A stretch of DNA of 64,000 nt from Escherichia coli. Lineage in GTDB: Bacteria; Pseudomonadota; Gammaproteobacteria; Enterobacterales; Enterobacteriaceae. The DNA lies in assembly GCF_050920415.1 (NCBI RefSeq), contig NZ_CP169309.1, one strand, 5' to 3'. A program made the translations under genes and the position numbers. Positions 2,133 through 60,405 of this stretch are shown here, piece by piece (positions within the stretch are counted from its first letter, which is position 1; every line of letters starts with the position of its first letter). The notes beneath the pieces are model-generated. The model ran no database searches and had not been told where the DNA came from. It saw only the letters and a program-made list of their open reading frames with translations.

Positions 2133-2432
2133 ATGGCGCTTACAAAAGCTGAAATGTCAGAATATCTGTTTGATAAGCTTGGGCTTAGCAAGCGGGATGC
2201 CAAAGAACTGGTTGAACTGTTTTTCGAAGAGATCCGTCGAGCTCTGGAAAACGGCGAACAGGTGAAACTCTCTGGTTTTGGTAACTTCGATCTGCGTGAT
2301 AAGAATCAACGCCCGGGACGTAACCCGAAAACGGGCGAGGATATTCCCATTACAGCACGGCGCGTGGTGACCTTCAGACCCGGGCAGAAGTTAAAAAGCC
2401 GGGTCGAAAACGCTTCGCCCAAAGACGAGTAA
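2133..2432 (+). CDS. ihfA: Integration host factor alpha subunit
   Basis: 99 aa, ATG at 2133, N-terminus [17 protein letters not shown] matches IhfA; hairpin terminator downstream. Confidence 0.97.
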
Positions 2433-2446
2433 TCTGATCTAACTAA

Positions 2447-2475
2447 AAAGGCCGCTCTGCGGCCTTTTTTCTTTT
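2447..2475 (+). terminator. Rho-independent terminator after ihfA
   Basis: GC stem ggccgctctgcggcc followed by T-tract tttttctttt. Confidence 0.7.
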
Positions 2476-2532
2476 CACTGTCGAAGAGTCACCGTAAAAT
2501 CAACGCCATGACACTTCAGCAGAACGGATACC

Positions 2533-4125: not shown

Positions 4126-4874
4126 TGTCTATTGTGATGCAGCTACAGGATGTTGCGGAATCAACCCGCCTTGGGCCGCTTTCTGGCGAGGTTCGGGCTG
4201 GGGAGATCCTGCATCTGGTGGGGCCGAATGGCGCGGGTAAGAGTACCTTACTGGCGCGAATGGCCGGAATGACCAGCGGTAAGGGAAGCATTCAGTTCGC
4301 GGGGCAACCACTGGAAGCATGGTCCGCAACAAAACTCGCGCTGCATCGCGCCTATCTTTCACAACAACAGACGCCACCGTTTGCAATGCCGGTCTGGCAC
4401 TACCTGACACTGCATCAGCACGATAAAACGCGTACCGAACTACTGAATGATGTCGCAGGGGCGCTGGCTCTTGATGACAAACTCGGACGTAGCACCAATC
4501 AACTTTCCGGCGGCGAATGGCAACGCGTACGTCTTGCTGCGGTGGTGCTGCAAATCACACCACAAGCCAATCCCGCAGGTCAATTGCTGCTTCTTGATGA
4601 GCCTATGAACAGTCTTGACGTTGCGCAACAAAGTGCGTTAGACAAAATTCTGAGCGCGCTGTGTCAGCAAGGACTGGCGATTGTGATGAGCAGTCACGAT
4701 CTCAACCACACCTTGCGTCATGCGCATCGGGCGTGGTTGCTAAAAGGTGGAAAAATGCTGGCCAGTGGACGCAGAGAAGAGGTGCTCACGCCGCCAAATC
4801 TGGCGCAGGCCTATGGGATGAATTTTCGCCGTCTGGATATCGAAGGTCACAGAATGCTGATTTCGACCATCTGA
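4125..4874 (+). CDS. btuD: Vitamin B12 ABC transporter ATP-binding protein
   Basis: 249 aa, Walker [10 protein letters not shown] and ABC signature LSGGEWQR visible. Confidence 0.95.
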
Positions 4875-4951
4875 ATTCATGAGTATCTTGAAAATCGGGT
4901 AATTACGACGCTAAATTAATGCAAGAATAAAAAACAGAGGAACCGTACGGA

Positions 4952-5416
4952 ATGCGTTTCTGCCTTATTTTGATCACAGCACTGTTTCTGGCCGGGTGCA
5001 GCCATCATAAAGCTCCGCCGCCAAATGCCAGACTTTCTGACTCGATTACCGTTATTGCCGGGTTGAACGACCAGCTACAAAGCTGGCATGGCACACCGTA
5101 TCGTTATGGTGGTATGACGCGCCGCGGTGTGGACTGTTCGGGGTTTGTGGTTGTGACGATGCGCGATCGTTTCGATTTGCAGCTGCCCCGTGAAACCAAA
5201 CAACAAGCCTCTATCGGCACGCAAATTGATAAAGACGAGTTGCTGCCTGGTGACCTGGTCTTTTTCAAAACGGGTTCTGGACAAAATGGTTTGCATGTAG
5301 GTATTTACGATACCAACAACCAATTTATCCACGCCTCTACCAGCAAGGGAGTGATGCGTTCCTCTCTTGATAATGTCTATTGGCAGAAAAATTTCTGGCA
5401 GGCGAGACGAATCTAG
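4952..5416 (+). CDS. nlpC: NlpC/P60 family lipoprotein peptidase (MepS paralogue)
   Basis: 154 aa, lipoprotein signal with lipobox LAGC, NlpC/P60 Cys (DCSGF) present. Confidence 0.9.
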   Translation: MRFCLILITALFLAGCSHHKAPPPNARLSDSITVIAGLNDQLQSWHGTPYRYGGMTRRGVDCSGFVVVTMRDRFDLQLPRETKQQASIGTQIDKDELLPGDLVFFKTGSGQNGLHVGIYDTNNQFIHASTSKGVMRSSLDNVYWQKNFWQARRI

Positions 5417-5427
5417 TATGTCGAAAA

Positions 5428-5460
5428 ATGGACGGCGATGATACATCGCCGTCCATTTAC
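5428..5460 (+). terminator. Hairpin terminator after nlpC
   Basis: Inverted repeat atggacggcgatg...catcgccgtccat directly after the nlpC stop. Confidence 0.6.
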
Positions 5461-5662
5461 TCCTGAATACAGTAGTATTTTGCAGACAAAAATTCCGTAA
5501 ATGGATTATTCGTTTATAATCAGGATAATCTAAAAAAAGGACCCCTGAAAAAGTGGTTAACATGGAACAAATGAAAGTTACTCCTTCTGTAATTGTTATG
5601 TCTTATGGCCTCATCCCTTTTAGCCGGATACTGAAAAACATCCTTCGAGAGGGACGGTTACC

Positions 5663-6376
5663 ATGAAGATTTTTTTGGAGAATCTTTATCATTCTGATTG
5701 CTATTTCCTGCCGATAAGAGATAACCAGCAAAACCTTGTCGGCGTTGAGTTAATTACCCATTTCTCCAGTGAAGATGGTACGGTTCGTATACCGACGAGT
5801 CGGGTTATAGCGCAACTTACCGAGGAGCAACATTGGCAATTATTTTCTGAGCAGTTGGAATTGCTAAAATCATGCCAACACTTTTTTATTCAACATAAAC
5901 TCTTTGCCTGGCTTAATTTAACCCCACAAGTGGCTACTTTATTATTAGACAGGGATAATTACGCGGGCGAACTATTAAAATATCCGTTTATTGAACTGTT
6001 GATTAATGAGAATTACCCGCATCTCGATGAAGGAAAAGATAATCGCGATCTTTTGTCCTTATCGCAAATGTATCCCCTTGTGTTAGGTAATTTGGGCGCA
6101 GGCAATAGCACAATGAAAGCGGTTTTTGATGGTCTTTTCACCCGCGTCATGCTGGATAAAAGTTTTATTCAGCAACAAATCACGCATCGCTCCTTCGAAC
6201 CGTTTATTCGTGCGATCCAGGCGCAAATTTCCCCATGTTGCAATTGCATCATCGCGGGGGGCATTGATACGCCAGAAATAATGGCACAGATTACCCCCTT
6301 TGATTTCCATGCTCTCCAGGGATGCCTGTGGCCTGCCGTTCCTGTAAATCAGATAACGACGTTGGTTCAGCGATAA
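5663..6376 (+). CDS. ydiV: Degenerate EAL-domain protein, anti-FlhD4C2 factor
   Basis: 237 aa, N-terminus MKIFLENLYHSDCYFLPIRDNQQ matches YdiV; the EAL motif position reads ELI. Confidence 0.9.
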   Translation: MKIFLENLYHSDCYFLPIRDNQQNLVGVELITHFSSEDGTVRIPTSRVIAQLTEEQHWQLFSEQLELLKSCQHFFIQHKLFAWLNLTPQVATLLLDRDNYAGELLKYPFIELLINENYPHLDEGKDNRDLLSLSQMYPLVLGNLGAGNSTMKAVFDGLFTRVMLDKSFIQQQITHRSFEPFIRAIQAQISPCCNCIIAGGIDTPEIMAQITPFDFHALQGCLWPAVPVNQITTLVQR

Positions 6377-27068: not shown

Positions 27069-27206
27069 CGTGTAATGGCTGCATGAAATAAACAATAAAA
27101 TATAAATAACATTATCAGCCTGCCGACGGCTTGAAGAGAGTCACAGTATCTTGTGCAACATTATTGGAAAGAGTGAGGGGGCGAGGTAGCGAAGCGGAAA
27201 AATGTT

Positions 27207-27312
27207 AAAAAAAAGCCCATCGTGGGAGATGGGCAAAGACTACACACAGCAATTCGTTGTTTCACTCAGGGGATTTCCATGCTTATAAATCAATATGTTG
27301 ATTTATAACCGT
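27207..27312 (-). ncRNA. rprA: RprA small regulatory RNA (Hfq-dependent activator of rpoS translation)
   Basis: Reverse complement reads ACGGTTATAAATCAACATATTGATTTATAAGCATGGAAATCCCCTGAGTGAAACAACGAATTGCTGTGTGTAGTCTTTGCCCATCTCCCACGATGGGCTTTTTTTT, recognised as RprA with its intrinsic terminator. Confidence 0.88.
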
Positions 27313-32462: not shown

Positions 32463-32561
32463 CGTTGTCACCAGAAAAGTGTGACGCATATTGCTTTTGG
32501 TCATTATCTGCACAGTAAACGGTGGTATACTGTGCAGGTCTTGTCTAAAAGCGAGGATGCT

Positions 32562-32750
32562 ATGTCTACTCAACTTGATCCCACCCAGCTGGCCATTGAA
32601 TTTTTACGTCGTGACCAGAGCAATCTTTCACCTGCCCAATATCTCAAACGTCTGAAACAACTAGAACTTGAATTCGCTGACTTGCTTACTCTCTCTTCTG
32701 CTGAATTAAAAGAAGAAATCTACTTTGCCTGGCGTTTGGGCGTGCATTGA
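32562..32750 (+). CDS. ydiH: Small protein YdiH
   Basis: 62 aa from ATG at 32562 (MSTQLDPTQLAIEFL); the ORF-track 5' extension is rejected. Confidence 0.7.
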   Translation: MSTQLDPTQLAIEFLRRDQSNLSPAQYLKRLKQLELEFADLLTLSSAELKEEIYFAWRLGVH

Positions 32751-32949
32751 TCCTGACGTAATGCCGCGAGTTCGCCAAATCGGCCTGGATTAATCTTCGT
32801 CCAGGTTCGAGGGCCTTCTTAATACTGCTTTTCTACCCGCCTGATAACGTTCAAAAATAATACAAATCGCAGTTTGTGCTAAAACAGCGGCTTAGCTTTA
32901 TGAGACTATTCTTATCGCCCCTTCAAGAGCTAAGCCACTGTGAGTGCCG

Positions 32950-33017
32950 GAGATAAGCGCCGGATGGGGTAGAAACCCTTAAGCCTGTGATGCACAGACT
33001 TAAGGGTTTTCTTATTT
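32950..33017 (+). ncRNA. rydB: Candidate RydB sRNA (boundaries approximate)
   Basis: Strong hairpin aacccttaagcctgtg...cacagacttaagggtt plus T-tract in the ydiH-sufA spacer, where rydB is expected; the RydB sequence itself was not recalled. Confidence 0.4.
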
Positions 33018-33103
33018 CTGAACGCTGCACTTTTTTACCTATCTCTTAAATAGTCATTTTCAATACAACTTTTTCTTTTTCATCTCAGCCTTAATGCTCC
33101 TTA

Positions 33104-33119
33104 GATAATAATCATTATC
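33104..33119 (+). promoter_or_regulatory. Distal Fur-box-like palindrome upstream of sufA
   Basis: gataataatcattatc, a near-perfect GATAAT/ATTATC inverted repeat about 180 bp upstream of the sufA ATG. Confidence 0.45.
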
Positions 33120-33233
33120 TAACAATGAGATACCTAATTCTTAGCGTGCCTGTTAACCCACACATCAGGGTCTATGCTTATTAAAAGCAGGCAAAAAGCA
33201 TGTTTTACGGTAAAGCCCCTGCGTTTGCTGGGT

Positions 33234-33252
33234 TGAACTGATAATCATTATC
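33234..33252 (+). promoter_or_regulatory. Fur box in the sufA promoter
   Basis: gaactgataatcattatca matches the Fur consensus (GATAATGATAATCATTATC), about 50 bp upstream of the sufA ATG. Confidence 0.7.
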
Positions 33253-33298
33253 ACTAACATGCTGTTATACGCTGAAAGCGATGAAGTGAGGTAAATCG

Positions 33299-33667
33299 AT
33301 GGACATGCATTCAGGAACCTTTAATCCACAGGATTTCGCCTGGCAGGGCTTAACGCTGACACCCGCAGCCGCTGTCCACATCCGTGAGCTGGTGGCAAAG
33401 CAACCAGGTATGGTCGGCGTGCGCTTAGGCGTGAAGCAAACGGGCTGCGCGGGATTTGGCTATGTGCTCGACAGTGTTAGCGAGCCAGACAAAGACGATC
33501 TGCTGTTTGAACATGACGGCGCGAAGCTGTTTGTCCCGCTGCAAGCGATGCCGTTTATTGATGGCACGGAAGTCGATTTCGTTCGTGAAGGACTTAATCA
33601 GATATTCAAATTTCACAACCCGAAAGCCCAGAATGAATGTGGCTGTGGCGAAAGCTTTGGGGTATAG
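33299..33667 (+). CDS. sufA: Fe-S cluster assembly A-type carrier
   Basis: 122 aa, N-terminus [22 protein letters not shown]-terminal CGCGESF motif. Confidence 0.95.
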
Positions 33668-50691: not shown

Positions 50692-50997
50692 TCAGGCGAG
50701 TTTTGCCTGATTGATTTGACTCAGTGGCTCATTGACATCGAAAACTTTGGCGACAACTTCCTCAACGCCGAGATTTTTCAGTCGGGCAGTATGTTTTTCC
50801 AGATAGGCAAGGGCGCTTTTTTCATCAGTGAAAAGGTAGATCCCACCGGCTTCGTGGTTCTTTTCACTTTCTGTCCATACCTTCCACAGAAAACCAGGTT
50901 CCTGATTAATTGACTCAGCAAGCGGTTTAAGCTGCTCAGCCATTGCGTCGCCAAATGGGCCATTAAAAGCAAAATGAAGTTGTAACAAAGTTGCCAT
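50692..50997 (-). CDS. ydhR: Small dimeric alpha/beta-barrel (putative monooxygenase) protein YdhR
   Basis: 101 aa, ATG 50997, [16 protein letters not shown]. Confidence 0.85.
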
Positions 50998-51104
50998 AGC
51001 GATTCTCCTTCTGATAACGCATACGAAGACAGTGTAAATCTTTTAACGTATTGGATACAGAGAAGAAACAGAGGGAAAAAGGAGAAGACCAGATTAAGAA
51101 AATC

Positions 51105-51181
51105 TGGTGCGTCCGAGTGGACTCGAACCACCGACCCCCACCATGTCAAGGTGGTGCTCTAACCAACTGAGCTACGGACGC
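51105..51181 (-). tRNA. valW: tRNA-Val (anticodon GAC), downstream copy
   Basis: Reverse complement GCGTCCGTAGCTCAGTTGGTTAGAGCACCACCTTGACATGGTGGGGGTCGGTGGTTCGAGTCCACTCGGACGCACCA folds as tRNA with anticodon GAC and encoded CCA; valV/valW names assigned by position only. Confidence 0.95.
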
Positions 51182-51185
51182 AGGA

Positions 51186-51262
51186 TGGTGCGTTCAATTG
51201 GACTCGAACCAACGACCCCCACCATGTCAAGGTGGTGCTCTAACCAACTGAGCTATGAACGC
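51186..51262 (-). tRNA. valV: tRNA-Val (anticodon GAC), upstream copy
   Basis: Reverse complement GCGTTCATAGCTCAGTTGGTTAGAGCACCACCTTGACATGGTGGGGGTCGTTGGTTCGAGTCCAATTGAACGCACCA; 4-nt spacer to the second copy. Confidence 0.95.
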
Positions 51263-59852: not shown

Positions 59853-59896
59853 TCCATTTCACTCCAGACCCTAACTTCAGCTCCTGCAAAATCGCA

Positions 59897-59912
59897 AGGT
59901 AAACGTTTGCCT
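59897..59912 (-). promoter_or_regulatory. PUR box (PurR operator O1) in the purR leader
   Basis: Minus-strand GGCAAACGTTTACC, palindromic pur box core about 50 bp upstream of the purR ATG. Confidence 0.55.
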
Positions 59913-60150
59913 TTACACACCTTACGCACAACAAAAATGTTGCGGTACGCCGGAAAAACGACACGGAGCGTCAGGAAGGGGTCAATGGCCAGTACGCAAA
60001 TAGTGTAAGCGTGGAATTTTGGCCGATCTTGACGAAAAGGGGAAGTGGTAAAAACACTTATCATTATAAATGACGGGAGATTTTTTCATCACAGTGTGTA
60101 AAAATGCGTAATATCACTTTTTGTGTGGTAATAAAAAAGGAGAAAACTTG

Positions 60151-60240
60151 ATGAGCACCGACCTTAAATTTTCACTGGTAACAACAATTATCGTCCTCGG
60201 TTTGATCGTGGCCGTGGGTTTGACTGCCGCGCTGCACTGA
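60151..60240 (+). CDS. ynhF: Small membrane protein YnhF (29 aa)
   Basis: ATG at 60151 encodes MSTDLKFSLVTTIIVLGLIVAVGLTAALH, a single transmembrane helix, with RBS aggaga upstream; not in the ORF track because it is under 60 aa. Confidence 0.6.
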   Translation: MSTDLKFSLVTTIIVLGLIVAVGLTAALH

Positions 60241-60405
60241 TTTCCTCTCGAGGGAGCGCGTTCTCCCTCGCATCTCCTTCCTGTTTGTTAGCAAAATGGC
60301 AAAAGTGTTTTCTCTTTTTGTTATTTTCATTTTTTTGTGATTGCTGTCATGCTTTCGCCACTTTAATGAATATCGCGTAATGACGCGAAGAGGTGGAGAT
60401 AAGGC

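Follow-up and report, generated by a model that had tools for sequence, protein, structure and literature searches.

M1 RNA of RNase P and tRNA precursors such as leuX are transcribed with an intrinsic terminator that is cut off after transcription. Classical Hfq-dependent small RNAs (sRNAs) keep the terminator hairpin and its 3′ oligo-U. Lambdoid phages such as the Stx phages carry cargo ("moron") and tRNA genes in the late region between Q and S, and in lambda the stretch from Q to the lysis genes gives rise to the pR′-6S RNA-tR′ leader, an abundant short transcript that ends at a terminator. The sRNA RydB (RF00118, b4430; synonyms tpe7 and IS082) of Escherichia coli had no known targets and no known transcription factors as of 2024 (PMC11230228). 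Its response to paraquat is SoxR dependent (PMC2064960), and it is among the most ppGpp-repressed sRNAs, alongside SsrA and SsrS (PMC3963941). When overexpressed, RydB has been reported to regulate rpoS negatively, and deletion of rydB was linked to persister phenotypes in a preprint. RydB has been classed as Hfq independent (PMC3933206), with a 2.5-fold enrichment of the Salmonella RNA in Hfq coimmunoprecipitation (PMC2515195). The Salmonella gene was annotated at 105 nt (Sittka et al. 2008; PMC2515195), long enough to take in a hairpin that follows the conserved part of the RNA, and rydB is listed with a Rho-independent terminator (PMC12306157), indicating that this hairpin was already recognised as the rydB terminator.

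We analysed a 64-kb stretch of E. coli DNA, hereafter the window, in which ydiJ, menI, ydiH, sufA and sufB follow each other in this order. A 548-bp spacer on the plus strand separates ydiH (32562-32750, +) from sufA (33299-33667, +). A reading made from the sequence alone (the sequence-only reading) had placed a candidate RydB in this spacer and named an alignment to the Rfam model as the check. That alignment bore out the call, as RF00118 matched positions 32917-32977 (+) over its full length (model 1-61 of 61; 83.0 bits against a gathering score of 50; E value, 3.5e-18) and nowhere else in the spacer, and no further family was found in the spacer when it was searched against Rfam at E ≤ 1. 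K-12 rydB (b4430; NC_000913.3, 1764713-1764780, minus strand), also located between ydiH and sufA, aligns to 32905-32972. The flanking genes and their orientation are the same and the spacers are 97% identical, with one difference in the RydB core and only two in the hairpin, both in its apical loop. The window copy and b4430 are thus the same gene.

rydB and its terminator are already recognised features of the E. coli gene. Of 5426 complete E. coli genomes, 5420 carry RydB with its hairpin, almost all of them in a single copy, and rydB is absent from the PGAP annotation of E. coli genomes. In K-12, b4430 is annotated as a 68-nt gene that stops 5 nt short of the 3′ end mapped by Term-seq and begins 12 nt upstream of the predicted start. 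The interval proposed in the sequence-only reading, 32945-33020, contained the hairpin and the 3′ half of RydB but missed the beginning of the gene, which lies approximately 28 nt further upstream. The value of the hairpin call itself is mostly one of annotation, rydB being missing from PGAP-annotated genomes and its K-12 coordinates agreeing neither with the mapped 3′ end nor with the predicted start.

The 621-bp ydiH-sufA stretch is 100% identical to that of strain MFDS1022581 and approximately 96.5% identical to that of K-12. At least 99% identity to window positions 32700-33320 was found in just 10 of 5421 E. coli genomes, most of them being approximately 96.5% identical, which indicates that the window DNA comes from an uncommon E. 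coli lineage. Other features of the window were recorded along the way. The longest close inverted repeat of the 64 kb is in the menI-ydiH spacer, directly upstream of the ydiH start (32493-32552; arms of 28 nt, 79% complementary). Further Rfam matches in the window, at 27205-27312 (-), 2374-2532 (+), 59853-60243 (+), 50981-51143 (+) and 51108-51262 (-), are to RprA, STnc540, STnc550, two tRNA genes and HPnc0260; the HPnc0260 match, which overlaps a tRNA on the opposite strand, is probably spurious. A small open reading frame of 18 codons (ATG at 32900, TAA at 32956) was rejected as a coding sequence: its frame is broken by 1- to 2-nt indels in Salmonella, Klebsiella and several Citrobacter, and the ATG is lacking in Rahnella.

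The hairpin downstream of the RydB core is 39 nt long and occupies 32972-33010 (+). The sequence-only reading had pointed out two complementary 10-nt arms and a T-tract on the plus strand, and we found both arms, AACCCTTAAG at 32974-32983 and CTTAAGGGTT at 32999-33008, with perfect complementarity and a U-rich tail. The distances it gave, about 200 bp after ydiH and 280 bp before sufA, were close to the measured 221 and 288 nt. The lower stem comprises 12 bp (GAAACCCUUAAG/CUUAAGGGUUUU) and is separated by a C·A mismatch (32984/32998) from an upper stem of 5 bp (32985-32989/32993-32997), closed by a 3-nt loop (32990-32992). The U-rich tract, UUUUCUUAUUUCU, runs from 33007 to 33019 (+) and contains 10 U in 13 positions; its UUUU at 33007-33010 makes the last pairs of the stem, opposite GAAA at 32972-32975, and is followed by CUUAUUUCU at 33011-33019. 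This tract is interrupted in E. coli and nearer to canonical (UUUUUU) in Salmonella and Citrobacter. The minimum free energy (MFE) of the hairpin is -24.4 kcal/mol, compared with -11.4 ± 2.6 kcal/mol for 200 shuffled sequences (z = -4.97), none of which was as stable. Among the close inverted repeats of the window the hairpin ranks second in length, with arms of 17 nt that are 94% complementary.

Thus, a stable, G+C-containing stem-loop stands directly before a U-rich tract, as in intrinsic terminators. A consensus terminator scan, whose rule calls for a loop of 3 to 8 nt and an uninterrupted stem right before the T run, passed over the hairpin. The internal mismatch violates the requirement for an uninterrupted stem, so this miss is an artefact of the rule and provides no evidence against the hairpin.

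We then compared the locus in 78 ydiH neighbourhoods from species representatives of the Enterobacteriaceae, chosen independently of RydB. RydB was found beside or near ydiH in Escherichia, Salmonella, Citrobacter, one Leclercia metagenome-assembled genome and Pseudenterobacter, and it was not found near ydiH in 20 loci of other genera (Enterobacter, Lelliottia, Kluyvera, Kosakonia, Trabulsiella and others). Among 30 distinct sequences from Escherichia, Salmonella and Citrobacter, compensatory changes affect 12 of the 18 pairs of the hairpin. In that alignment 91.9% of the hairpin cells are paired, versus 20 to 59% when the 3′ partner is slid, and none of 500 shuffles matched the observed values. 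In Citrobacter koseri, Citrobacter sp. Awk4, R56 and NCU1, and Pseudenterobacter, the stem has an entirely different sequence (e.g., CGGUCAGCGCUG...CAGCGCUGACCG) at the same site and with the same shape. The hairpin, which begins 2 to 3 nt past the core, is therefore conserved as a structure and not as a sequence.

The 54-nt RydB core behaves differently, as it is almost invariant, whereas the hairpin sequence is freely replaced between genera. Its closing helix P1 (32917-32921/32966-32970) has compensatory changes in two pairs, and the pair between positions 1 and 54 occurs as G-C, A-U and G·U. Helices P2 and P3 are invariant, so they are neither supported nor contradicted by covariation, and the comparative support is for P1 alone. 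The 61-mer does not fold more stably than shuffled sequences (z = -0.08). Unrelated hairpin and U-tract terminators follow the core in Klebsiella, in two of three Pantoea loci, in Rahnella and in the inspected viral contigs described below, at distances from 2 to approximately 90 nt; among the inspected copies, the exceptions without such a terminator are those of P. piersonii and P. stewartii. A functional RNA core with an unspecific terminator behind it would be expected to look like this. On this comparative evidence, we regard the core as the conserved functional part and the terminator as a required but replaceable accessory.

The 3′ end of RydB has been mapped in K-12 by Term-seq (Adams et al. 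2021; PMC7815308, supplement 1), which called a single rydB 3′ end, 1764708(-), in three growth conditions. The two read counts shown for this end, 2.17e6 and 4.14e6, compare with 1.8e5 and 0.8e5 for lpp, i.e., 12 to 50 times as many (PMC7815308). By direct reading of the K-12 locus, 1764708 is the second C of GAAACC|CUUAAG and corresponds to window position 32977, which is the last base of the Rfam model. It lies 8 nt past P1, with six bases of the hairpin's 5′ arm kept in the RNA. The abundant form of RydB is therefore an RNA of 61 nt without the terminator, 32917-32977 (+), with its 3′ end mapped in K-12 and its 5′ end predicted. Its length agrees with the northern band of approximately 60 nt that Wassarman reportedly obtained for RydB in 2001. 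The hairpin thus marks the rydB gene and is not part of the abundant RNA. The sequence-only reading had expected a discrete transcript ending at the hairpin; one strong end does exist there in K-12, but it falls at the sixth base of the 5′ arm instead of downstream of the T-tract.

The U-tract corresponds to 17646xx in K-12, where the curated Term-seq tables call no end in any of the three conditions (PMC7815308), so that 3′ ends of the kind left by a terminator in vivo do not appear there. Rapid processing would give the same picture, and the missing U-tract end therefore lowers the case for a terminator without removing it. As no such end was called, termination at the hairpin in vivo is something that we infer, and do not observe, from the structure, its position, its covariation and the terminators that follow the core in homologues. 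In the soil isolate E. coli SC434, a copy of IS1397 (IS3 family) sits exactly between the RydB core and the hairpin, at the equivalent of window positions 32974-32976 (4560-6003 in the retrieved SC434 piece), with a 3-bp AAC target duplication, and parts the gene from its terminator.

Upstream of RydB, conservation points to a promoter that belongs to the gene. In many Citrobacter, approximately 2 kb separate ydiH from RydB, and yet approximately 85 bp upstream of RydB are still conserved. This region contains a block, CTGATAACG...AAAAATAATACAAATCGCAGTTTGTGCTAAAA, at 32841-32884 (+), part of which (...GCAA..TTGTTAAA) is found again before the copies of Klebsiella, Pantoea, Rahnella and many phages, always 22 bp from the -10 hexamer. 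The block may be a regulator site or an UP-like element. It is followed by a putative extended -10 element, TG-a-GACTAT, at 32901-32909 (+), with the TG at 32901-32902 and the hexamer at 32904-32909, identified by its conservation. We compared the enterobacterial copies, those of Klebsiella, Pantoea and Rahnella, and the phage copies that have this promoter. All the promoter-bearing copies examined share the TG and, within the hexamer, an A in position 2 and a T in position 6, and positions 3 to 5 vary, a pattern that we take as the signature of an extended -10 promoter. Since the block and the -10 region move with RydB away from ydiH, RydB probably has its own promoter. Transcription is predicted to start at about G/A 32917, which is the 5′ boundary of the Rfam model and the 5′ partner of the covarying first pair of P1. 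Two alternative -10 hexamers, TATGAG (17 bp from a TTGTTA-like element) and TATTCT, were discarded because the key A is lost in several species. The supplements of the SMRT-Cappable-seq and Cappable-seq studies had no entry near 17647xx.

Taken with the mapped 3′ end, these features make it probable, in our judgement, that rydB transcription ends at a Rho-independent terminator made up of the hairpin (32972-33010) with its U-rich tail and that this terminator is then removed. Transcription would start near G32917 from the extended -10 promoter (TGaGACTAT, 32901-32909), and the polymerase would cross the 54-nt core and terminate at the hairpin, giving a precursor of approximately 95 to 103 nt. 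The terminator would then be processed off to yield the 61-nt RNA. Two routes can be envisaged, an endonucleolytic cut followed by trimming by a 3′ exonuclease that would stall before P1, or a direct cut by RNase III in the stem of about 18 bp. That the 61-nt form arises by processing is the most likely explanation. 3′ exonucleases leave an 8-nt tail when they stall at a closing helix, and the 8-nt tail that follows P1 therefore points to an endonucleolytic cut with trimming, the route by which M1 RNA and certain tRNA precursors are matured. Nevertheless, an end located inside an 18-bp helix could equally come from a direct RNase III cut. The likeness of RydB to M1 RNA and leuX, as we draw it by analogy, would be that the terminator ends transcription and is then lost, leaving an abundant structured RNA with a short 3′ tail. 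M1 RNA differs in being a ribonucleoprotein component, which RydB is not known to be.

The stem might chiefly be an RNase III site whose cleavage yields the 3′ end at 32977, while the U-tract would be a secondary site of termination or termination would take place further downstream. The end mapped by Term-seq falls within the stem, at six pairs' distance from the base and twelve from the loop, its position is the single dominant one in each of the three conditions, and exonucleases by themselves would not easily cross an intact hairpin of -20 to -24 kcal/mol. However, for an RNase III substrate the stem is short and mismatched at one position, and the 8-nt tail past P1 is also compatible with exonuclease stalling. 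The copies in other genera have ordinary short terminators 10 to 35 nt from the core and would need another route. In addition, rydB is absent from the main text of a study of RNase III targets (PMC6212723). We consider this explanation unlikely, although it survives better than those that follow.

A 3′ end inside the hairpin might also mislead as to which RNA matters, the true RydB being a terminated transcript of approximately 95 to 105 nt of the classical Hfq type and the 61-nt species a product of decay or of library preparation. Most enterobacterial sRNAs do retain their terminator, the 105-nt Salmonella annotation (PMC2515195) would accommodate such an RNA, and the hairpin is well conserved, with compensatory changes in 12 of 18 pairs. 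Against this, the K-12 Term-seq end equivalent to 32977 has millions of reads in three conditions, with none at the U-tract, and the Rfam model stops at the same base. The Hfq enrichment is weak at 2.5-fold (PMC2515195), RydB has been classed as Hfq independent (PMC3933206), and the hairpin sequence is swapped freely between genera, in contrast with the nearly invariant core. We find this explanation improbable, and the reported northern band of about 60 nt also argues against it. A classical Hfq-dependent sRNA retains its hairpin and 3′ oligo-U, whereas the abundant RydB ends before a complete hairpin, and its weak association with Hfq is in keeping with the lack of a terminator and U-tail. 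The core and the hairpin of Salmonella rydB are orthologous to those of the window; the Salmonella coordinates span the terminator, whereas the E. coli RNA mapped by Term-seq ends before it.

That the hairpin is unrelated to RydB, being a terminator of the ydiH mRNA or a REP-like extragenic palindrome, is highly improbable: it does lie downstream of ydiH on the same strand, and IS1397, which targets palindromic units, has inserted at its base in SC434, but ydiH has its own stem-loop at about 32780-32810, the Citrobacter hairpin stays directly 3′ of the core even where about 2 kb part RydB from ydiH, and its single copy per genome, unlike REP elements, rules out a REP-like repeat.

RydB copies were also found away from the ydiH-sufA locus. 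These outside copies, spread across three bacterial families, are 91 to 95% identical in the core and score 73 to 81.5 bits, above the Rfam cutoff, this range coming from the copies scanned with Rfam. In Klebsiella pneumoniae, RydB is located downstream of patD (1518-1578 in the retrieved piece). Other copies are carried by Pantoea plasmids of approximately 500 kb and a P. stewartii plasmid, and by Rahnella megaplasmids, including a plasmid of Rahnella sikkimica. Outside Escherichia, Salmonella and Citrobacter, the nonphage contexts are after patD, beside a stress gene with a KGG domain and after an O-antigen ligase gene. In Rahnella aceris, RydB is part of a lambdoid prophage on pRAHAQ01 (1203-1263 in the retrieved piece), between a DNA methyltransferase gene and the holin-lysozyme-Rz genes, on the late-gene strand. 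Apart from those of P. piersonii and P. stewartii, the outside bacterial copies each have a different downstream terminator.

The exact core pattern was found in 44 viral contigs of IMG/VR, 8 of which were scanned with Rfam; as this set was picked by the exact pattern, the invariance of the matched bases within it is circular. Approximately 35 of these contigs have a holin-sized open reading frame 120 to 300 nt past the core, followed by endolysin- and spanin-sized frames, and the two holins and two endolysins tested all matched phrog_20 and phrog_7. All six upstream frames tested were Q-like antiterminators (PHROG families phrog_753, 79, 127 and 943). Wherever the flanks of viral copies are annotated, RydB is thus between a Q antiterminator and holin/endolysin genes. 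The position between Q and the lysis cassette is shared by the Rahnella prophage and the IMG/VR contigs and not by the window copy, which is chromosomal, at the ydiH-sufA site, with no phage genes nearby, and in this respect differs from moron cargo. The phage copies do occupy the Q-to-S cargo position, many with their own promoter and terminator. The lambda pR′-6S RNA-tR′ leader is likewise a short, abundant, terminated transcript of that region, but RydB was rejected as a late leader of this type, because a separate lambda-like pR′ and tR′ are found directly after Q, upstream of RydB. The same RydB promoter occurs beside three Q families, and it is therefore not a Q-specific loading site.

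In one phage type RydB has no promoter, and genes for tRNA-Gly(UCC) and tRNA-Asn(GUU) lie 72 nt upstream on the same strand (tRNAs at 339-494 and RydB at 553-613 in an example piece). Two other viral contigs have tRNAs nearby (1249-1404 and 2399-2474 in the respective pieces), tRNA-Asn and tRNA-Phe genes lying approximately 250 nt downstream of RydB in such contigs. This neighbourhood suggests cotranscription and tRNA-like processing of the phage RydB, and it is a further likeness between RydB and stable RNAs of the tRNA type. In two viral contigs, STnc100 (RF02076) is just upstream of RydB (1078-1257 and 441-641 in the respective pieces), indicating that the Q-to-holin region of such phages carries several small-RNA genes. 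A search of deposited phage genomes (INPHARED) returned no RydB copy, and YdiH had no match among the PHROG phage families. We found no paper linking RydB to phages, although our coverage of the literature was incomplete and this is no proof of novelty.

A tentative view, to which we give a little less than even chances, is that RydB is not a base-pairing sRNA of chromosomal origin but a mobile, phage-associated stable RNA, of which the copy of E. coli, Salmonella and Citrobacter would be domesticated. The travelling unit would comprise a promoter or tRNA neighbours, the nearly invariant 54-nt core and any terminator, and it would be found in the Q-to-holin cargo region of phages with several Q types, on megaplasmids of Pantoea and Rahnella and at unrelated chromosomal sites. 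The hairpin would then be disposable, maturation would resemble that of tRNAs and M1 RNA, and the invariant loops would bind a conserved host factor instead of pairing with mRNAs.

The spacer also contains candidate regulatory sites of the suf operon. A CTAT-N7-ATAG palindrome, CTATCTCTTAAATAG, conserved in Escherichia and several Citrobacter, is present at 33039-33053, approximately 30 bp past the U-tract, and presumably resembles the central part of the OxyR site in the suf promoter. Fur-box-like sequences are found in the suf regulatory region at 33104-33119 (GATAATAATCATTATC), with one base different from K-12 (T for C), and at 33240-33252 (GATAATCATTATC), just upstream of sufA. The terminator would shield the OxyR/Fur-controlled sufA promoter, approximately 30 bp downstream, from the very active RydB promoter. 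Given its distance of about 30 bp from the putative OxyR site, its efficiency may matter for the tight regulation of suf.

Two aspects of RydB merit the attention of specialists, namely that the mature RNA lacks its terminator and that phages carry homologues. A mature RydB without its terminator falls outside the usual mould of Hfq-dependent sRNAs, a possible reason for the failure to identify a target since 2001. The phage copies located beside tRNAs and STnc100 provide a testable lead on the origin and function of this orphan RNA, for instance through an effect on lysogens or on the timing of lysis, or through a protein partner.
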